A DNA stretch of 64,000 nucleotides, from contig OZ244717.1 of the NCBI GenBank assembly GCA_965218975.1, positions 1,664,001 through 1,728,000 of the forward strand, written 5' to 3'. This DNA is from Candidatus Oxydemutatoraceae bacterium (GTDB lineage: Bacteria; Pseudomonadota; Gammaproteobacteria; Poriferisulfidales; Oxydemutatoraceae). Below the pieces are notes generated by a model, which was not told where the DNA came from, made no database searches, and worked only from the letters and a program-made list of their open reading frames with translations. Shown here piece after piece: positions 29,948-40,602 of the stretch. The stretch's first letter is position 1, and each line of letters starts with the position of its first letter. The position numbers and the translations under genes were made by a program.

Positions 29948-31060
29948 TCAACCGACGCCACTGAAAACAGCAGGCACAAACAACTTATGCATTAACGCTG
30001 CACGATTCCTCACGCCCATTTTCCCGAAAATGCTGGCGACTTGATTATTTAAGGTAGCTGTGCTCTTGCAGCGCTTATCGGCAATCTCCTTAATTGACAA
30101 CCCCTGCACCAAATCAAGGCAAAGGCTTGCCTCAATCTTGGTCAAACCATACAACTTTATCAACGGCTCGGGTGATTGCGCCTTAAACCCGCGCGGATCT
30201 AATATTAATACAGCAACACTTGCTTGAACATACATTAAATTGTCATGTTGTATATTGAGCGGGAAAACCTGAACGTCAAGCGTCTCGGTTTCCGACTGCA
30301 ATTTGACTGCGCCCATCCTGGGATTGGCGCCTTTGGCATGGTGGATTAATTTTTGCAGCTGCTGAGTCTGCTCTGAGTTCGCGGCTGTCAAACCTGCGCC
30401 ACTGATACGCAGCAGCGGGTAACGCTTTAATATGTCATTTGCCGTATTGTTAACCAACAAGGGATGACCTTCGGAAGTCAACAGAATGACCCCCACTCCC
30501 AAAGACTCAAAACCGGATGATAAAACCTTGGTAACCGCGCTTTGTTCGGACAATTTGCTGTGTAAAAGCATTGCCTGTCTCACATGCGGGGCGATTCTCT
30601 TCAAAAACATCATCGCTGAATCACTAAACGGCTTGTTTTTGCCTAATTGAACGGCAAACGTAACGATGTTTTGATCATTGATCTTGAAAGAAAAAGCGGC
30701 TCTGGTATAAATACTATAGGGGCCAATAAAATCTTCTTCGTATTCTTTGCAATACAGCGATTGGTCCATACGTATCAATTCATCGCTCTGAGCTATCATA
30801 TTTAATGTTTTATGGCTAGTCTTTGCCAGCACGTCTAAGTTTCTGTAGTATCTTTCATACTCTCGTAACGCTTCCGGATTCGGATTATGCGATGCTACTA
30901 CGTCAATTTTTCCTGTGGGTATGTGGTTGACTATCAATCCTGCCGACATCGCGTTCATGCTGGAAACCGCTGCGTTAAGCACCGACGAAAGAGGTTCCGG
31001 ACTAGCGATTGAGGTATAAATATTCTCAATCGTTTTAATCAGATCAGACTCACGCCACAT
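29948..31060 (-). CDS. LuxR-type HTH transcriptional regulator with N-terminal GAF/PAS-like sensor region
   Basis: C-terminal YGLTKIEA..LVQGLSIKEIA..STATLNNQVASIFGKMGV.RAAL; PAS-like GVILL....PLLVN.AA segment. Confidence 0.85.
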   Translation of the reverse strand: MWRESDLIKTIENIYTSIASPEPLSSVLNAAVSSMNAMSAGLIVNHIPTGKIDVVASHNPNPEALREYERYYRNLDVLAKTSHKTLNMIAQSDELIRMDQSLYCKEYEEDFIGPYSIYTRAAFSFKINDQNIVTFAVQLGKNKPFSDSAMMFLKRIAPHVRQAMLLHSKLSEQSAVTKVLSSGFESLGVGVILLTSEGHPLLVNNTANDILKRYPLLRISGAGLTAANSEQTQQLQKLIHHAKGANPRMGAVKLQSETETLDVQVFPLNIQHDNLMYVQASVAVLILDPRGFKAQSPEPLIKLYGLTKIEASLCLDLVQGLSIKEIADKRCKSTATLNNQVASIFGKMGVRNRAALMHKLFVPAVFSGVG

Positions 31061-31131: not shown

Positions 31132-32928
31132 TTAAATTCTTATTGAGCCTCCATCAAAAAGAGGAACGGTCATCGAGAAATTCTCACGATAAGTTAATTT
31201 CTGCTCCTCCAAAATACCGATGGCGATCTGTTCACCCATGCGCAATGACTCGATGTAATCCGAGAAGTAATGCACCCCGGCCCAATTGCGCCCGATGGAA
31301 ATATTGGATGCCAGCTTGTTGAGCTCGCCTTCAACGGTAAGCGGGTCCGGGCCCACGGGAACAGCCGCTAACGTTTTACCGTTATCTTTGGGATTAGATA
31401 CAAAAGCCAAGCCATTACCTGCCATTGTCAACGGATGCTTGTGATCAAAAAACGCTTTGAGTATCGTCACGCAGGCGCCGGCCACCGTCGCATGACCGGC
31501 GCCATAGGAGGGATGCATCGGCGACCCTTCGGGAAAAGCCATCGGCAAAAGATAATTTCTGTTCGGCAACATATTGAGTATCTTCTTAAGGGTCTTCACC
31601 ATATCGCTAACTTCCTTCACATCCAGATCTTCATGTTTCTGTAGCCTTGCCGCAAGTGCTTCAGGCCGCAAACGACGATGTACGTTAAATTTCTGGTACC
31701 TGACCGCTTTCAGCGCACGAGTTGCGACTTCAGTCACCAAGGTAAGAATATGCGGTCCGCCAAAAAGAGCAAATCCTTGCTGGTGATCTTTATCATCGCA
31801 AAGTTGAAAAGGAATACCCGAATCAAACGGCACTTTCTCCGCCAACAAAATGAGACAAGCATTCAGATAGGCTTCATACAAAGCGTCGTAATGCACATAA
31901 GTGGCAAGGTCGCGCGGTGTGGTGATAAATCGCCGGGGGGGATCACTGTTATACGCTTCTTGATAGCGTAGGTCGGCGCCTTCTTGCACGTCGAACCATT
32001 CATTCCAGGTCTTCATATAGTCTCGCCCTTCCTTCGCATAACGTACTTTTTGGTCAATCGTTATTGCTCCGTAGGAAATTATGCCGTCGGCATGTTTACG
32101 TTCGTTATCAATGGGATTGATCGCGGCATTCCCAGATAAAAGGAACTGCGATATGTACGGACCGACATCATCACCGGGGGTGATGCCGCGAAATGCGTTT
32201 TCACGAGTTAGTTGGCTTCTTTTACGACTGCGTTCATGCGCGGTCAATTGACAGCAAGACTCATTCTTAAACCAATCCAATTCGTTAAGCAACTTGATCA
32301 AATCGTCAACTTTCTCTGAATGATCGTCTGGAATACTAGCAATATTAACTTTCCGGTTCTCAATGCTTGTAAATGGAATATCCCTCAATAATGCCTGCGC
32401 ATAAACTTCGCCCATTTCGGCAGTGAGCTCTTTGCTCCCTATCGCCGGGGCAGGTGGCATGGTCACAGCTTGAGCGTCAGGTCCTTCCAGATCAAATGTG
32501 TTGCCGACAGCCTGACTTTCCCATCCACGAATTTTTGCCGGTCCTGAGTCCATTGCAGAGTCAACACACTTATCGCCTTTGCCGTATTCAACGTTCTGAG
32601 CTGCTTCGGAGTGCCAGTTGCGCTTTTGTGCCGGTCCGAGCCTAGTGTTAATAAAATCCTGAGGATCGCTACTATCACACCCCTGAACAAACTTTTCAAA
32701 GTCTTCGGAGGAAGCCACTAGCCCGGTATGGTGGTTATGCGGCATACCTTTGGTAAAGCTAGCCAAGTAGGACGGCTGATTAAACTCACCGTGCGTTCCA
32801 ACCTTACAGATGATGCGAAACTTCTGTTCATCACCGTTCGCGACATGACGCGGATGCGGCCGCTCTGCAGCCAGTTCGGCAGCGGAGCACCTGACCTTGA
32901 ACGCTTCTTGTAATCTGTATTTATTCAT
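31132..32928 (-). CDS. Vanadium-dependent haloperoxidase (bromoperoxidase type)
   Basis: YQKFNVHRRLRPEA, EGSPMHPSYGAGHATVAGACVTILKAFF, GELNKLASNISIGRNWAGVHYFSDY, RDLATYVH. Motifs and ~600-aa size match red-algal/cyanobacterial V-BPOs. Confidence 0.92.
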   Translation of the reverse strand: MNKYRLQEAFKVRCSAAELAAERPHPRHVANGDEQKFRIICKVGTHGEFNQPSYLASFTKGMPHNHHTGLVASSEDFEKFVQGCDSSDPQDFINTRLGPAQKRNWHSEAAQNVEYGKGDKCVDSAMDSGPAKIRGWESQAVGNTFDLEGPDAQAVTMPPAPAIGSKELTAEMGEVYAQALLRDIPFTSIENRKVNIASIPDDHSEKVDDLIKLLNELDWFKNESCCQLTAHERSRKRSQLTRENAFRGITPGDDVGPYISQFLLSGNAAINPIDNERKHADGIISYGAITIDQKVRYAKEGRDYMKTWNEWFDVQEGADLRYQEAYNSDPPRRFITTPRDLATYVHYDALYEAYLNACLILLAEKVPFDSGIPFQLCDDKDHQQGFALFGGPHILTLVTEVATRALKAVRYQKFNVHRRLRPEALAARLQKHEDLDVKEVSDMVKTLKKILNMLPNRNYLLPMAFPEGSPMHPSYGAGHATVAGACVTILKAFFDHKHPLTMAGNGLAFVSNPKDNGKTLAAVPVGPDPLTVEGELNKLASNISIGRNWAGVHYFSDYIESLRMGEQIAIGILEEQKLTYRENFSMTVPLFDGGSIRI

Positions 32929-33106
32929 TCCGTTCTCCTTCAGGTTAACTATTTACAAAGGATAAGGCACTCCCACCTATTGCTGTTTGTTTTTATTCGC
33001 ACACTGATATTCCCCTTTTTTGTCTTTTTGTAATAGCTCGTCTCGCTCATCTTCTTGAAGAGGCACCAGTAATGCCGACCACTGATCTATGCTCAAACCC
33101 GATTTG

Positions 33107-34429
33107 TTATTTGACAACCGAAACCGTAACGGTTTTTGAATGCCCGATAGTATCGGCAATATAGAGTACGTACTCACCCGCCCCCACCTCTGCAGTGGCG
33201 TTGATAGTAATTGCATGATCGCCCGGCGGAAAAGGATCCTCAACTGTAAGACTGTCCTTCTTTGGCGGGCTTGATAGAAATCGTGCGAAATAGGGTGATT
33301 TCCCACCCTTGACAATAATCTTCGCTTCGCTTGCGGTTTTCGCCTTCATCTGAATCCGGGCGGGTGACACCGAAATATCGGTAGTCACGTTCACGTCGCA
33401 CTTCTTCAGCATTGTGATCGGCTGTTTTTTATTTACCTCATTAACAATCGCGCTTACATGCAATGCCGTCGTGTCAAGCTTTAAACTTTCACTCCTAAGT
33501 GTCCTGACCGCAACCTTAAGAGATTGATTATTTAAAACTGCGAGTGTATCATCTGCTTTATCATCTGCTTTATCATCTGTAGGTACAGCAAAAATTTTCG
33601 TGGCAGCGTATAATTGGCTGATGATGTTAGACAATGCTTCCAGCTTAGGCTGCGATTGTCGGATGGCATCATCGACAGCACTCCCGATACGATCAACGGA
33701 TACCACAAGTTTACTCCCGCTCGTTTGTATCTGTCGGTGTAAGCTTTTCCCCGCGATGTAAGCTAAGTTAGCTGTCTCGACGATTTGTTCGGCTTCGGCC
33801 ACTGCTGCGTCTGCAGCCTGTGCATCATCCGTCCCTGCCTTGCCCTTTTTTCGTAGTTCCTTTACTCTCAAAATGGCTTGCTGTACTGAGTCAATCTGAC
33901 TCTTTAAACTTTCCAAGTCATCCTCAAAACCTGATTTTCCACCTTCTTTTGTCTTGTTTGCCTTCTGTTGTTTACCTTCTGGAAAGTTCAGAGGTAAAAC
34001 CGCTTCCACCGCACAGTTCATGGCTTTCATGCCTTCAGCATAAATACGCTCCCGGATATCGTTCGAGAACCACTTGGCCAGCGTGTATCCCGTGCCGCCG
34101 GCAAGGCCGACACCCGCGAGAGCATCAGCATGTGCACCGTAGGTTGCAAGACCGAGCGCGGCAGCTCCCGAAAAAATCATGCCCACCGCTGTTCTATTAG
34201 TCATTTTGGCATGAGCTGCCAGCTTCTTACGATATGCCTTTTTGGCATCTTGGGCATATTTTATTGCTTCCGACAGCGTGGGGTTTGCTGGGTCCTGCGC
34301 ACTTAACGATCCCCACTCAACATAAGGGTTGATCATGCTGCAGCCTTGGAGCACCAGGGCACCGAAAATAACCACGGCGACAGCGAAGTGTCTGACTTTG
34401 AGCGCTTCCTGCAGTCTATATTTATTCAT
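33107..34429 (-). CDS. Uncharacterised lipoprotein (Gly/Ala-rich hydrophobic segment, coiled coil, C-terminal beta-rich domain)
   Basis: Hydrophobic signal ending in lipobox LQGC; AAGGAG RBS; 440 aa. Confidence 0.75.
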   Translation of the reverse strand: MNKYRLQEALKVRHFAVAVVIFGALVLQGCSMINPYVEWGSLSAQDPANPTLSEAIKYAQDAKKAYRKKLAAHAKMTNRTAVGMIFSGAAALGLATYGAHADALAGVGLAGGTGYTLAKWFSNDIRERIYAEGMKAMNCAVEAVLPLNFPEGKQQKANKTKEGGKSGFEDDLESLKSQIDSVQQAILRVKELRKKGKAGTDDAQAADAAVAEAEQIVETANLAYIAGKSLHRQIQTSGSKLVVSVDRIGSAVDDAIRQSQPKLEALSNIISQLYAATKIFAVPTDDKADDKADDTLAVLNNQSLKVAVRTLRSESLKLDTTALHVSAIVNEVNKKQPITMLKKCDVNVTTDISVSPARIQMKAKTASEAKIIVKGGKSPYFARFLSSPPKKDSLTVEDPFPPGDHAITINATAEVGAGEYVLYIADTIGHSKTVTVSVVK

Positions 34430-34519
34430 TTTGTTCTCCTTTGTCGGATGCTCCTACCACTTGCGCGCCATCCGTTATCAATAAATCCTCTGCGAGAAGT
34501 ACGGCATATCCCAACTCTT

Positions 34520-36124
34520 TTAAGATAACTTGCTTCGGGAAAGAAATGAGACAGTACGACTGCCAACAAGCAAGACAAGTCCTAACAACAATAGCAACCA
34601 TAAATCCATGGCGCCGGAGCCTCCGCCGCCTCCGCCAGAGCCTCCGCCGCTATTGCTGTAAGCAGGACGCGCCCTGTCATCGCAAACGGCAGTGTCATCA
34701 GGATAATAGCCATCGCCGTGTTCAAGAGCGCATGCGACTCTCCCGTCTTCAATGATTTTGCTCATCCTGGAAACCCGATTTCCACAAACATTACTCCTCC
34801 TACCATGAGTAAGCACGCCAACAACTTGTGTGTTTTGCCTTAGCCACATCGGACTCCCGGACGACCCTCTCGTAGACCCCCCTACTCGGTAGTGGGTGGT
34901 ATAGTGGCTACAGCCGGAAGAGTTATTACAAGAACTGAAAAGATCATTTAACTCATAATGATCAAGCGCCACAATTTCCGTTTGTAAGTAGTTTTGATCA
35001 GTGCCCCTCGCATGATGAAGCGCTTCAATTATTTCACCCCGAGACAAGGAAACGGAGCTCGAGCCTAATCGTAGAAATGTTGAAGCTGTCGTCGCTTGGA
35101 GATCTGATTCATCCACTGACAGCAGTGCATAATCTCCTCGCGCGTTAGCCGCAATAAATCTTGCGCCTGTCGCGCTAATTCTTTGATCGGCGGGAACGCA
35201 ATCCGAAACACCGATCGCAATAGAGATATTCACAAAAGTGCCTATCGGCATTTCAGGGTTAGTGCCGGCATCAATGCAGTGATACGCCGTCAAAAGATAA
35301 ACATGATCATCACTGGCACCGGTGCCGGTATTCAGCAGTCCTGCAGTGCACTGCGCCCCGCTTCCTTGACCAGGAGGGGGAGTATAATTTATACGGGCCA
35401 CGCCTCTCCACCGCTCAACTCCATCAGGAAAAACACACAAGTTGTTTCCAAAAGGGCAGTCGGAGTGACTTTGCGGAACGGCAAAGGAGTGGCTATTGAG
35501 TTGCTGAATGTTACCGGCAGCATCTCTGAAGTGATGGTCTAAATGATATATGGCAAACGGAAAAGCATCCGGGGACACAGCAGATTGAGTCCATACTTCA
35601 ACAACCACTGTGTCATCCGGAATCAATGGCGACCAGAAGCCCGCGCCATCGGCCGGCCCTTTGCCGACATACTCACCGACAAAAGATGCGGGATTATCTT
35701 TCAGTCCATATACTTTTACAGACATTTCGTCATTCAGGTCAAACCGGGAAAACCACACCTTGACACCCAGTGCTTCGGGAGAATAAATGTGCAACTGCCA
35801 GATATTGAAGCTGTCTCGTTGTCCGACCGGATGCCAGTTGCTCTGATTAACGCTTACCGCTCTGCTAATACTCGTATAGAGTTTGCGTTTATCCTGAATC
35901 AGACTGACAATTTCTCTCTCCTCTTCTTCACTGAGTAAAGGCAACTCCAGCCTGACGTCATCCGGGTATTCTGATGCCAGGTCGCGGGCATGCTCTATCT
36001 CCCTCGGTTGCACTTCCACCTCTTCCATCCTCATTTCCGACACATCGGAGTAAGCGATCTGAAAAAACGAAAGAATGAAAATCCCCGCCGGAATAAGCAA
36101 GGTTTTATATTTCATAGTATTCAT
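34520..36124 (-). CDS. Secreted trypsin-fold (lysyl-endopeptidase-like) serine protease with GlyGly-CTERM anchor
   Basis: Signal peptide, propeptide, triad LTAYHC / DYALL / GSSGSP. C-terminus SGGGSGGGGGGSGAMDLWLLLLLGLVLLV followed by basic residues. GGAGG RBS before ATG 36124. Confidence 0.85.
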   Translation of the reverse strand: MNTMKYKTLLIPAGIFILSFFQIAYSDVSEMRMEEVEVQPREIEHARDLASEYPDDVRLELPLLSEEEEREIVSLIQDKRKLYTSISRAVSVNQSNWHPVGQRDSFNIWQLHIYSPEALGVKVWFSRFDLNDEMSVKVYGLKDNPASFVGEYVGKGPADGAGFWSPLIPDDTVVVEVWTQSAVSPDAFPFAIYHLDHHFRDAAGNIQQLNSHSFAVPQSHSDCPFGNNLCVFPDGVERWRGVARINYTPPPGQGSGAQCTAGLLNTGTGASDDHVYLLTAYHCIDAGTNPEMPIGTFVNISIAIGVSDCVPADQRISATGARFIAANARGDYALLSVDESDLQATTASTFLRLGSSSVSLSRGEIIEALHHARGTDQNYLQTEIVALDHYELNDLFSSCNNSSGCSHYTTHYRVGGSTRGSSGSPMWLRQNTQVVGVLTHGRRSNVCGNRVSRMSKIIEDGRVACALEHGDGYYPDDTAVCDDRARPAYSNSGGGSGGGGGGSGAMDLWLLLLLGLVLLVGSRTVSFLSRSKLS

Positions 36125-36373
36125 CTTAGCCTCCAAAGCACGTTGCGCTTAAAAAGCGACAAAGTCGTGCGGCTGTTGAGTTTCTGGACTGCCTGCGCCG
36201 GGGCGCAGTGACTGGTTTCTTACATAAAGAGTGATCTATAGCAACATTGATCGTCTGATCGTCTATCATCTTCCGGACGTCCTCCTGTTTAATTAGCTTT
36301 TTTTAATCTTGTTGTTTGTGGGCTAATTACCTAATCTGATAAAGACTCTAAACGACTAATATTAAAATTGGAA

Positions 36374-37902: not shown

Positions 37903-39051
37903 TTAAACCCCCACTTCGTGAGCAGATCTCAATACAGGAGAAAGCTTGGAAGGAAGCGAATGACGAACTTGCCAGAAGGGAGCGTCGGGCCATCGTTGTT
38001 CCATCCTATAATATGCGATCTTGGTTTCGAGATAGGTCAAGAAGTCTCGCGCGAGAGTGTGCGAATAGTTCTGAAGGGCTTCTTTGTCTCCTTGGAGATG
38101 CGCAACAACCGCATCAGCGGCCACCGCACCGTGGCGTAGACCCTTAGAGATTCCTTCCGAGGAGAGCGGATCATAGGCTTGGGCTGCATCTCCGGTGGCG
38201 ACCCATGCATCGCCCACTATTCGGTCGGACAACTGACTGTTTGCGATTTTTACTTGGACCGGGCCAGCGAGAATACGTCCGACGCACCGAGCTGCGGTGC
38301 AGGGCGCGAGGGCCAGATGTTTATGCCACGTAGCCTCTGGCGATTGGCAACCGTGGCGTATCATATTGGCTTCTGACATCCAAGTTGCGATCATGCGACC
38401 GGAAGCCAGTTGCACGGAATACCACCATCCAGCCTCGGTAGCTTCAATGAGTAACCGGCCGTTGTCGCCTTTGTCTTCTCGCGGTGCCTCCAGAATACCA
38501 ATGATCGCGGCAAGTCGATCAAAACGGTGGATCTTCGCACCGAGACGACGAGTGAGCCAAGCAGTCCTGCCCGTAGCGTCGACAAGAAAACGTGCGTGGG
38601 CGACTAATCCTTTTGCATCACCAGCCAGCGGCACGGCCCAGCCGGAATCTATCGGCGAGGCTCCGACAGCATACGACGCGTTCAATATCCGTACACCGCG
38701 TTCTATTGCCTGAGCCCGTAATCCCGCATCAAACCTTGGGCGGTCCAAGTTGATGCCCGAGCCATGTGGGCTGGTCATGTAGTCGCGCGTCATAAGATCA
38801 GGTCCGCCCCATGCAGACTCGATGAATGGACAAGGGGCGTGCTCCGGCGAAGCGATCAGAGTGCCAAGACCCATGGCATGTAGTGCAACTACACCCTCGG
38901 GCGATAAGTGCTCGCCGACCGTTCCTTCCGTCCCGTCGGATCGTTCAATAACGACTACATCCAGACCATGGCTTTGGGAAGCGATTGCGACTGCGCATCC
39001 GGCGGGACCGGAGCCGAGAACGATCAGGTCGGTAGAAACGTCGGCGTTCAA
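37903..39051 (-). CDS. LodB/GoxB-like FAD-dependent oxidoreductase (CTQ maturation flavoprotein)
   Basis: GSGPAG, VGEHL, LDRPRFD, FLVDATGR, GWWY, GDAAQAYDPLSSEGI, YYRMEQRW...FW; directly downstream of the lodA-like gene. Confidence 0.85.
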   Translation of the reverse strand: MNADVSTDLIVLGSGPAGCAVAIASQSHGLDVVVIERSDGTEGTVGEHLSPEGVVALHAMGLGTLIASPEHAPCPFIESAWGGPDLMTRDYMTSPHGSGINLDRPRFDAGLRAQAIERGVRILNASYAVGASPIDSGWAVPLAGDAKGLVAHARFLVDATGRTAWLTRRLGAKIHRFDRLAAIIGILEAPREDKGDNGRLLIEATEAGWWYSVQLASGRMIATWMSEANMIRHGCQSPEATWHKHLALAPCTAARCVGRILAGPVQVKIANSQLSDRIVGDAWVATGDAAQAYDPLSSEGISKGLRHGAVAADAVVAHLQGDKEALQNYSHTLARDFLTYLETKIAYYRMEQRWPDAPFWQVRHSLPSKLSPVLRSAHEVGV

Positions 39052-39084: not shown

Positions 39085-40602
39085 TCACTTCTTCTCAACG
39101 TATTGATTACCTTGCTGCAGGACGAAACGCAACGTGCTCCAATTGTCAACCATGTCTTTGGCGGTCCAACTGCTTGGCATCCAATCGCCCGGAGTGCCAT
39201 TCCTCTTAATCACCCAGTCTGGTCGTTGTGCCGGCCACCACCCTGCACCACAGTCTTTGAAATCTGCTTGCCAAGGACAGGCCAAGCCAGCAGTGATTGA
39301 GCCAGCCAAGAATTTTGAGTCATTGATACGGAATGGCAGGCGGTAAGTGTCCTTCCTCGCCATGATATATCCCGCCTCAATCCCGGGCCAAAAGGGACCG
39401 CCAATGCAGGCATCAAGAGCCGCTTTGTCCAACGCAAGCGGTTGATTTGCCATTGGGATCTGTTGAAAAGGCGGTGGAACCGGTGGTGGTGCTTGCCAGT
39501 CCGGTGTAAATTGCCCGTTCTCCCATTTGTGCATCAGTTCGAGCTGAAGGGACGTCAGCTGGGCTGGCTGGTCTTCCCGGCTGGTGAAGGGATTGTCTGG
39601 GTCGAGACCGGGGTGTAACCGGGGCATGTTGGCTATGCCGTCACCGCCCGGACGCCGAAGCCTCTTGTAAACATCCCAACGTGCCTTCTTGTTCGCACTC
39701 GTATTACTCGACAATGCTTTCAATCGGAATGGTTTAAGGAAGTTGCCGCCACCCGTCCCTGGACCATGGCCTTTATGCGCAAGCTGACTGACCCATTGTA
39801 GGAGCACTGTGCGCTCGAGAATCGGATAGATGTCGCGTGTGAACGATACCGGAGAGAGTCGCGCACGGAGCGATGGTTCCATTTGTACGGCCACATTCAA
39901 CGCTTGGTCCCACAGAGTTACTACATTGTTGATTGCCGGTGCATAGCTCGGCGGCGCAACAATAAGCCATGCGGAGTCGCAGGGGGTAGGTTCTTTACCT
40001 TCGAATTGGACGGTGGCTCGCACCGGACCGTCGGAAACATCGTCGTGCCAATCGGGGTTGTTGGCAAAATCAGGTAGCGGGGCTCCCGAGGGATAGGAGC
40101 TTGATTTACCCCTGCCGCCCAAGACGACTAATTGACCGCCTTGGTCCGTACGCAGGTGCCCTAAAATGACAGGGTTCCCCTTGAATTGACCGGACAACTT
40201 GACAGGGCCGCTGCCCGAACCTGAAATGCTCTGGGATCCGGCATCAATGTTTAGCTCATCCGCAGATGTATTTGGATTGCGAAGATTAGGATTAGGGGGA
40301 GGGTTCGGAGGAAACTCAGGGGCCGATGCCTTGGTGTTCGCCAGATGCACGGTCCACCTGATCGTCGCATCATCATCTCCGGTGATCTCTCGCACTACTT
40401 TGCCGAGGCGACCGGAATCATCGGACTCATACTCATAGACACGGAATCGGGCGCCCTGACGCTTTAGACGACCCTCGGCGTCTCGATAGAGTCCTGCAGG
40501 AACAATCCCTGGAGCCTCCGGACCAATGAAGTATTCATCAGGGCTGTTGCCTAAGCGGGCAACGCCAATTCCTGGATGGATGCGGTAGATCTTTGTCGAC
40601 AT
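39085..40602 (-). CDS. LodA/GoxA-family CTQ-dependent amino-acid oxidase
   Basis: RIHPGIGVARLGNS, KRQGARFRVY, WTVHLANTKA, NNPDWHDDVSDGPV, GGPFWPGIE, PWQADF..C...WWPAQRPD, MVDNWSTL.FV. Confidence 0.9.
   Translation of the reverse strand: MSTKIYRIHPGIGVARLGNSPDEYFIGPEAPGIVPAGLYRDAEGRLKRQGARFRVYEYESDDSGRLGKVVREITGDDDATIRWTVHLANTKASAPEFPPNPPPNPNLRNPNTSADELNIDAGSQSISGSGSGPVKLSGQFKGNPVILGHLRTDQGGQLVVLGGRGKSSSYPSGAPLPDFANNPDWHDDVSDGPVRATVQFEGKEPTPCDSAWLIVAPPSYAPAINNVVTLWDQALNVAVQMEPSLRARLSPVSFTRDIYPILERTVLLQWVSQLAHKGHGPGTGGGNFLKPFRLKALSSNTSANKKARWDVYKRLRRPGGDGIANMPRLHPGLDPDNPFTSREDQPAQLTSLQLELMHKWENGQFTPDWQAPPPVPPPFQQIPMANQPLALDKAALDACIGGPFWPGIEAGYIMARKDTYRLPFRINDSKFLAGSITAGLACPWQADFKDCGAGWWPAQRPDWVIKRNGTPGDWMPSSWTAKDMVDNWSTLRFVLQQGNQYVEKK

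Follow-up and report, generated by a model that had tools for sequence, protein, structure and literature searches.

In Staphylococcus aureus, tandem duplications with short junctions fuse the promoter, the ribosome-binding site, and the first 42–50 codons of a downstream gene in frame to sigH (PMC3486894). The nusG′-′sigH and rplK′-′sigH chimeras so formed are presented there as fresh, reversible laboratory events in which an intact upstream copy and a duplicated spacer are kept (PMC3486894). A second precedent is found in the Erp/Elp lipoproteins of Borrelia burgdorferi, in which OspE/F-like leader peptides are common to different mature subfamilies; the sharing is usually ascribed to recombination at 5′ ends, and the leader passes among many lipoprotein genes on prophage plasmids (bioRxiv 10.1101/2024.08.23.609448). 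Here, we analyze two adjacent genes in a 64,000-nucleotide stretch of DNA, referred to as the window, from a Candidatus Oxydemutatoraceae bacterium (assembly GCA_965218975.1, contig OZ244717.1, forward-strand positions 1,664,001–1,728,000). One gene encodes a haloperoxidase of the vanadium-dependent bromoperoxidase type, and the other, directly upstream on the same strand, encodes a predicted lipoprotein. The two genes begin alike, and we propose with good confidence that the lipoprotein gene is a chimera headed by a unit of about 72 bases copied from the haloperoxidase gene of its own lineage.

As in the sigH chimeras, the ribosome-binding site, ATG, and first codons of a downstream gene are found in frame on the interior of an upstream gene, and the downstream gene is intact. 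In contrast to those chimeras, no intact copy of the upstream gene or of the spacer is present 5′ of the chimera; for an origin of the sigH type, a later deletion would have to be assumed. Moreover, 7 of 39 bases now differ between the copies, and the captured piece would have a new role in a signal peptide. The likeness to Borrelia is that a leader peptide is common to proteins with unlike mature parts. The difference is that the present case concerns a single lipoprotein, two copies in one genome, and a donor that is a non-exported enzyme whose N-terminus belongs to its fold. When the haloperoxidase itself is compared with the enzymes of Acaryochloris marina (5lpc) and Corallina (1qhb, 1up8), the alignments cover the whole length, including the segment R.QEA..(V/I)R..AAELA..RPHP.H, and nothing unusual was seen in the local enzyme. 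The oddity is that its start is found again on the neighboring gene. Searches of open-access papers and preprints turned up no account of a lipoprotein gene headed by the start of a haloperoxidase.

The shared start is as follows. In both genes, the Shine-Dalgarno 9-mer AAGGAGAAC occupies positions −12 to −4 and is followed by A at −1 and by ATG; at −3 and −2, one gene has GG and the other AA. Codons 1–13 read MNKYRLQEAFKVR in the haloperoxidase gene and MNKYRLQEALKVR in the lipoprotein gene, giving the consensus MNKYRLQEA(F/L)KVR. The 7 differing bases are 6 synonymous changes, i.e., TAC/TAT, TTA/CTG (2 bases), CAA/CAG, AAG/AAA, and AGG/AGA, and 1 non-synonymous change, TTC/CTC (Phe/Leu). An initial annotation of the window, made from the sequence, had described a 13-residue N-terminus and a ribosome-binding site common to two unrelated adjacent proteins; its coordinates (32890..34441, i.e., base +39 of the haloperoxidase gene to base −12 of the lipoprotein gene) and its count of synonymous and non-synonymous changes proved exact. 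By the Nei-Gojobori method, codons 2–13 carry 6 changes on 7.0 synonymous sites versus 1 on 29.0 non-synonymous sites (Fisher P = 2.4e-5). In a BLASTP comparison of the two whole proteins, only those 13 residues align; the remainder is unrelated.

The start is confined to these two genes. The initial annotation had suggested looking in the genome for other proteins, or haloperoxidase paralogues, that begin in the same way; two loci only were found, and no second haloperoxidase. In a six-frame search of the 2,081,000-base genome, the 12-mer following Met occurs at two places only with 0 or 1 mismatch, and the next best match has 4 mismatches. The 9-mer AAGGAGAAC has 19 copies on both strands of the genome, and NNN ATG follows only these two. 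Upstream of −12 no similarity is seen: at −60 to −13, 12 of 48 bases are identical, which is the random level. Local alignments of the flanks, upstream and downstream (beyond +60), were not significant, and scans for promoters, terminators, and RNA folding gave nothing above shuffles. A genome-wide control, in which pairs of ATG-initiated frames sharing at least 12 of the first 13 residues were counted, yielded 5153 pairs, 477 of them “unrelated,” and provided no usable background because it was swamped by insertion sequence (IS) copies and by the internal repeats of giant proteins. Repeated starts of these kinds abound in the genome, in IS copies and in giant repeat proteins around 0.73–0.98 Mb and 1.37 Mb.

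The similarity probably extends beyond codon 13. In the same register, codons 14–20 of the two genes are identical at 13 of 21 bases and at 6 of 7 third positions. Scored against the haloperoxidase segment, in-frame hydrophobic 7-codon windows taken from the long open reading frames (ORFs) of the genome reach a match as good in 0.16% of 28,015 cases (P = 0.0016). To summarize, the −12 to +39 part of the shared unit is certain, and an extension through +40 to +60, the end of codon 20, is probable on these base comparisons.

Which gene is the native owner of the peptide? The haloperoxidase is, by homology, a vanadium bromoperoxidase, and it aligns along its full length with solved enzymes of that kind. 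Searches of PDB chains with phmmer gave 5lpc_A (E 1.7e-194) and 1qhb_A (E 1.2e-148, residues 5–598 on 11–596), and the Corallina enzymes 1qhb and 1up8 match at E ~1e-146 to 1e-149. The alignments to 5lpc, 1qhb, and 1up8 begin at residue 5, in agreement with the earlier remark that the peptide resembles the first helix of vanadium bromoperoxidases. The Pfam PAP2 match is weak (E 3e-4, under the cut-off). Both active-site stretches of PAP2 type, with their histidines, are present: PMHPSYGAGHATVAGACVT occurs unchanged in the 5lpc chain, from which SIGRNWAGVHYF departs at a single residue (N for D). We take the residues of these stretches to have their customary roles. The enzyme has no signal peptide, and no hydrophobic stretch follows the shared 13 residues.

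The haloperoxidase family carries the peptide generally. The 120 best homologues, 58–66% identical to the local enzyme and drawn from several phyla by the names that some sources give, almost all start at the same Met, with the pattern MN..R.QEALKVR.SAAELA..RPHPRH. Conservation is highest at R13 (120 of the 120) and R5 (118), followed by A9 (108), N2 (88), V12 (82), and L10 (69). At least 8 of the 13 residues of the lipoprotein’s peptide are found in 47 of these homologues, the best having 11 of 13. Haloperoxidases of the same taxonomic family start with MNRFNRFRRKEAFAVRTDAAEMA, MKDRQQATFDFRVNAAKLA, and MAKDRRQESYRIREEAAELA. Thus, judged from these alignments, the peptide is the native, conserved N-terminus of the vanadium bromoperoxidase family.

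The local copies also share residues that are not typical of the family. At position 6, the 120 homologues have mostly Arg (61) or Lys (47) and never Leu, yet Leu6 is present in both local copies, and Lys3 (15 of 120) and Tyr4 (23 of 120) are likewise common to both. Since Leu6 is private to the two local copies, the alignments indicate that the donor is the haloperoxidase gene of this lineage, or a young duplicate of it, and not foreign DNA. At position 10, the Leu of the lipoprotein is the family-typical residue, and the Phe of the enzyme is found in 4 of 120 homologues and also in paralogue A of the closest relative; the change may lie in either copy. That relative, the sister genus genome G002, has two haloperoxidase paralogues 8 kb apart, both with N-termini unlike the local one.

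These data leave little room for an independent origin of the two starts, through convergence or chance, or for an artefact, i.e., misassembly or a miscalled start codon; we find explanations of this sort scarcely credible. What speaks for independent origin is that the synonymous sites of codons 2–13 carry no base-level signal beyond the shared residues. Convergence would nevertheless have to produce 12 of 13 residues including Leu6, an equally spaced copy of the 9-mer, and matches at 13 of the 21 bases that follow, in a genome where the next best match differs at 4 residues. As for misassembly, a 3048-base contig assembled from public reads spans 31530..34577, including both starts, with 0 differences; the genome and these reads may derive from one sample, and the contig is not independent proof. 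A collapsed repeat is excluded by the 7 differences between the copies, and no alternative start codon with a ribosome-binding site precedes the lipobox. As regards closer relatives, six public runs (X1–X6) yielded none: what matched was the identical sequence, whole or in short pieces, and no RNA data set was listed among the sources. Genome contigs contain a single match to a degenerate DNA pattern for MNKYRLQEA, in a 24-residue ORF of a Clostridia metagenome-assembled genome that is judged to be chance; metagenome contigs contain 0.

The lipoprotein belongs to a family with a different kind of start. Under the PROSITE rule, a lipoprotein precursor has a lipobox Cys, preceded by a hydrophobic stretch and by Lys or Arg. 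The front of the present protein, MNKYRLQEALKVRHFAVAVVIFGALVLQGC, has this make-up, with K/R near the N-terminus, an uncharged hydrophobic stretch, and the lipobox Cys, Cys30, within 35 residues. The Cys30 column is invariant in family alignments of 38 and of 9 sequences. Past the signal, the family motif C-x-x-x-N-P-[YH]-V is present, Cys139 and Cys344 are conserved, and the family profile matches over the full length. Profile searches assign 1139 representatives to the family at E ≤ 1e-3, of which the stricter limit of E ≤ 1e-30 leaves 186; the nearest are 35–40% identical over the whole length. Neither Pfam nor NCBIfam has a match to the lipoprotein, and the family is unnamed. A word-index search for closer relatives returned the protein itself and one 28%-identical cluster only. 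An AlphaFold model (mean pLDDT 81.8) has a long helical bundle followed by a C-terminal immunoglobulin (Ig)-like β-sandwich. Foldseek matches in the PDB are to Ig-like domains only and are weak (E ~1e-3); the helical part has no match there.

Among the 149 best representatives of this family, the lipoprotein’s 13-mer reaches at most 5 of 13 identities. Within this set, the MNKYRLQEA start, which the initial annotation had proposed to look for among the homologues, is not seen outside this genome’s protein. The readable N-termini of the family are ordinary short lipoprotein signals ending in ...GC(S/A)L.NP(Y/H)V. The lipobox Cys lies at a median position of 24.5 (122 of the 149 scorable, 22 of them at position 30 or beyond) versus 30 here, as expected of a lengthened signal. 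A word-index search with lipoprotein residues 1–40 returned only the protein itself among 16 candidates at E ≤ 10; the test is a weak one, as this E-value is beyond the reach of a 13-residue match.

The family is rare in the class: it was found in 1 of 400 scored genomes, the present one (one more was unscorable), and in 2 of 41 relatives. By this distribution, the lipoprotein gene looks acquired, probably horizontally. A partial homologue in another genome, G012, adjoins a transposase gene and lptF/G-like genes. The taxonomic family offers a further case of a lipoprotein gene that abuts a haloperoxidase gene, although the partners are not the same: in G002, a gene for a 322-residue lipoprotein starts 7 bases past the stop codon of haloperoxidase A (L015 13828..14796, +). 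This lipoprotein is not detectably related to the one studied here (best E 0.083), and a conserved enzyme–lipoprotein pair is not supported.

The direction of transfer follows from the distribution of the peptide. The haloperoxidase family has it and the relatives of the lipoprotein do not; therefore, it passed from the enzyme gene to the lipoprotein gene. We suggest that the captured unit would have replaced the original start of the lipoprotein gene, i.e., its Shine-Dalgarno site, spacing, ATG, and 13 codons, probably 20. The captured piece would then provide translation initiation, with a strong Shine-Dalgarno sequence, good spacing, and an A-rich start. It would also provide the n-region of a Sec/lipoprotein signal peptide, as K3, R5, K11, and R13 against E8 make it net basic. 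Codons 14–20 would have passed from CSAAELA to HFAVAVV by single-base replacements, lengthening the h-region ahead of the native IFGALVLQGC lipobox. These replacements favor hydrophobic residues, with two changes of Ala to Val and one each of Ser to Phe, Leu to Val, and Glu to Ala. The comparison suggests that an alanine-rich helix of the enzyme was remoulded into the front half of the h-region, predicted to be FAVAVVIFGALVL, and L-Q-G-C is an acceptable lipobox under the PROSITE rule. Lgt would lipidate the precursor at Cys30, and signal peptidase II would cut it before that residue, with loss of the shared peptide. That is, the peptide lies ahead of the invariant lipobox Cys and should therefore be cleaved, leaving mature proteins with nothing in common. 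Lipidation and cleavage are predicted from the lipobox, and sorting to the outer membrane is likewise a prediction.

If the proposal is correct, the locus shows, in a natural setting, how working start signals can come to a gene that was probably acquired horizontally. Part of an export signal would have been built from a piece of a cytoplasmic enzyme, its basic stretch serving as the n-region and its alanine-rich helix becoming hydrophobic through few base changes. The case bears on how easily signal peptides originate and on how often starts are swapped between neighbors. It is a footprint of evolution and not a new mechanism, and it comes from a single genome.

The pattern of change within the shared codons is next considered. 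The initial annotation had stressed that the copies diverged almost only at synonymous sites. The counts stand, and yet the identical codons are at a level not distinguishable from that of saturated orthologues: after Met, 6 of the 11 same-residue codons are identical, against a saturated orthologue baseline of 126 of 350 (36%; P = 0.17). So few sites are involved that the age of the copy is poorly bounded. When codons 2–20 are taken together, 13 of 19 third positions are identical versus a 38% baseline (P = 0.0065). Codons 14–20 carry about 7.5 non-synonymous and 0.5 synonymous changes, and the non-synonymous load is 8 on ~15 sites there versus 1 on 29 in codons 2–13 (Fisher P = 0.00027). These figures suggest that the divergence of the copies is moderate; a rough hand estimate from third-position differences is ~0.45 per site. 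Codons 2–13 show purifying selection summed over both copies, as expected on the enzyme side; on the lipoprotein side, the counts are too low for a firm conclusion. The near-absence of residue change there would reflect family constraint on the enzyme side and ordinary purifying selection, or limited time, on the lipoprotein side, rather than a function that the peptide has in both proteins.

A different reading of the same pattern is that the 13-residue peptide and its ribosome-binding site are a selected module, kept for one job in both genes. The job might be to match translation initiation, to act as a signal on the nascent chain, to be recognized by a chaperone common to both or by the neighboring protease, or to dock the lipoprotein precursor to the enzyme. 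In favor of this reading, 12 of 13 residues are preserved although 5 of the 11 same-residue codons differ, the 9-base Shine-Dalgarno sequence has stayed at its distance from the ATG next to wholly unrelated upstream DNA, and a protease gene is directly upstream. Further, if the lipoprotein-side copy were neutral for half of the ~0.45 divergence, ~5.6 replacements would be expected in codons 2–13, where at most 1 is seen, and strict neutrality is marginally rejected (Poisson P = 0.024). A constraint of the signal-peptide kind, with a non-synonymous to synonymous rate ratio (dN/dS) of ~0.25, gives instead ~1.7 replacements, and at most 1 about half the time (Poisson P = 0.49). Ordinary constraint is thus enough to account for the codon 2–13 data.

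The distribution and likely fates of the peptide also argue against a selected module. One peptide precedes an h-region and a lipobox Cys and should be cleaved, and the other is the first helix of an enzyme fold. The genome has two occurrences only, and the haloperoxidase family bears this start across many phyla. The peptide was not found in the 149 family representatives, nor in 9 metagenome loci with a family member (11 loci, picked by motif pattern, were fetched); no haloperoxidase gene was found in the available flanks of the 11. RNA structure is unusual at neither start (z = −0.21 and 0.32), and “matched translation” survives as no more than the trivial statement that the initiation region is the same in the two genes. 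We consider a selected module improbable, and the shared tag put forward in the initial annotation is not supported: the peptide lies ahead of the lipobox Cys, is found nowhere else in the genome, and shows a constraint that fits ordinary purifying selection. A particular form of the idea is that the haloperoxidase helix is kept on the nascent or uncleaved lipoprotein precursor, where it would be bound by a factor recognizing the enzyme’s N-terminus or by the enzyme itself. We hold this to be a long shot. If true, the synthesis or placement of an envelope lipoprotein would be coupled to a cytoplasmic hypohalite-making enzyme through a two-gene “address label” of a kind not described. The case carries a caution for annotation and for selection scans: a very low dN/dS in a short stretch common to unrelated neighbors need not mean a common function.

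How might the chimera have formed? The present structure is X-Y-X-Z, where X is the 72 bases, Y the remaining lipoprotein gene and the spacer, and Z the remaining enzyme gene. Any of three routes would give it. In route (i), an in-frame deletion would have fused a since-lost upstream haloperoxidase paralogue to the lipoprotein gene. In route (ii), a short-junction tandem duplication would have joined the interior of the lipoprotein gene to enzyme codon 20, and the original lipoprotein copy and one spacer copy would then have been lost. In route (iii), an incoming lipoprotein gene would have been inserted at enzyme codon 20, with duplication of 72 bases. Route (iii) fits the sharp boundary at −12 and the rarity of the lipoprotein family in the class; we know of no mechanism that produces a duplication of this type.

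In route (i), a second, upstream haloperoxidase would have diverged synonymously as an enzyme, and a deletion would then have run from about its codon 20 into the signal peptide of the lipoprotein. The vanished paralogue would have diverged under the constraint of its enzyme family, an account that calls for no selection on the peptide once it headed the lipoprotein. That constraint is strong over residues 1–13, codon identity is not distinguishable from the saturated level, and the missing homology upstream of −12 is explained as old divergence. In addition, G002 retains its two paralogues among proteins with a Gly-run and a hydrophobic C-terminal tail like those of the local protease. Set against this, the genome has one haloperoxidase match, beyond which a tblastn search at E ≤ 10 gives nothing but the 13-residue start and a single match of 34 residues. 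The excess of identical third positions in codons 2–20 weighs against a very old split, if codons 14–20 are homologous, and the paralogue must have been young, since Leu6 is private to this genome and both G002 N-termini differ. We regard the vanished paralogue as a possible but rather unlikely source. It was part of the first reading offered in the initial annotation, in which the lipoprotein gene had captured a haloperoxidase start as its n-region: the chimera and the n-region are retained, and the paralogue is possible, with no relic of it in the genome.

The 34-residue match lies outside the window (G000:C1:1820185-1820286, +) and corresponds to haloperoxidase residues 15–48, with 13 of 34 identical, including PHP.H and FR. 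A true homologue there would be what is left of a second haloperoxidase gene. The match is probably chance (E 0.32); it is 122 kb away, has stop codons around it, and was rejected as a relic of that kind.

Several points weigh against the proposal that the lipoprotein gene captured its start from the haloperoxidase gene of its own lineage. If a tandem duplication had taken place, the region upstream of the chimera would be expected to contain another lipoprotein copy and a copy of the 178-base spacer, and neither was found in the genome. By local alignment, the spacer has no counterpart upstream of the lipoprotein gene except for its last 12 bases (a fraction of 0.07 of shuffles reach the score). 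The paralogue route predicts a second haloperoxidase gene, and no relic was found in the genome. In the collections searched, no relative was near enough to reveal an intermediate: the best haloperoxidase match is 66% identical, and the best match to the full-length lipoprotein ~40%. What is proposed for the order of events and for the route therefore comes from a single genome. The homology of codons 14–20 depends on 21 bases; should it be chance, the junction would be at codon 13/14 and there would have been no remoulding. Lastly, the rejection of neutrality implies that some constraint on the n-region is real, and the proposal does not explain it in detail.

The coordinates of the genes and of their parts are collected in Table 1.

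Table 1. Features of the haloperoxidase–lipoprotein locus, in window positions.
Feature	Position	Strand	Basis or remark
Haloperoxidase gene, vanadium-dependent bromoperoxidase type, 598 aa	31132..32928	−	Open reading frame and homology
Lipoprotein gene, probably chimeric, 440 aa	33107..34429	−	Open reading frame
Copy 1 of shared 72-base unit	32869..32940	−	Front of haloperoxidase gene
Parts of copy 1	9-mer AAGGAGAAC 32932..32940; ATG 32926..32928; codons 1–13 to 32890; codons 14–20 (CSAAELA) 32869..32889	−	
Copy 2 of shared 72-base unit	34370..34441	−	Front of lipoprotein gene
Parts of copy 2	9-mer AAGGAGAAC 34433..34441; ATG 34427..34429; codons 1–13 (MNKYRLQEALKVR) to 34391; codons 14–20 (HFAVAVV) 34370..34390	−	
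Lipobox L-Q-G-C, residues 27–30 of lipoprotein	34340..34351	−	Translation and Cys30 column in family alignments
Spacer, 178 bases, lipoprotein stop codon to haloperoxidase start	32929..33106	−	
Trypsin-like serine protease gene, upstream neighbor	34520..36136	−	Pfam Trypsin_2 (E 3.9e-7), Trypsin (E 2.8e-5)
LuxR-type regulator gene, downstream neighbor	29948..31060	−	Pfam GerE (E 1.9e-5)

Read along the minus strand, the four genes are in the order protease, lipoprotein, haloperoxidase, LuxR-type regulator. The starts of the lipoprotein and haloperoxidase genes are 1501 bases apart, and the protease gene ends 90 bases from the lipoprotein start.

The C-terminus of the protease consists of a Gly-run, then a hydrophobic helix, and then a basic tail. 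The same build is seen at the C-terminus of a Cys-rich protein encoded beside haloperoxidase B in G002 (L015 5980..7080, +). These tails resemble a C-terminal sorting tag; a search of NCBIfam gave no match. Public runs X1, X4, and X5 contain a second, related sequence over the protease gene only (34586..35314), with ~100 differences per 600 bases and small indels; it may be a paralogue or come from a second strain. No variants of the lipoprotein and haloperoxidase genes appear among the public-run matches shown.

Upstream of the four-gene row by 1.8–4.5 kb and on the same strand are a gene for a LodA-type quinoprotein amino-acid oxidase (Pfam LodA_N, E 9e-66; LodA_C, E 1.8e-26) and, behind it, a flavoprotein gene (FAD_binding_3 and Trp_halogenase, ~1e-9); the two occupy 37903..39051 (−) and 39085..40602 (−). 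LodA enzymes give off hydrogen peroxide, the co-substrate of haloperoxidases. Together with the four-gene row, these genes could be a hypohalite-producing island.

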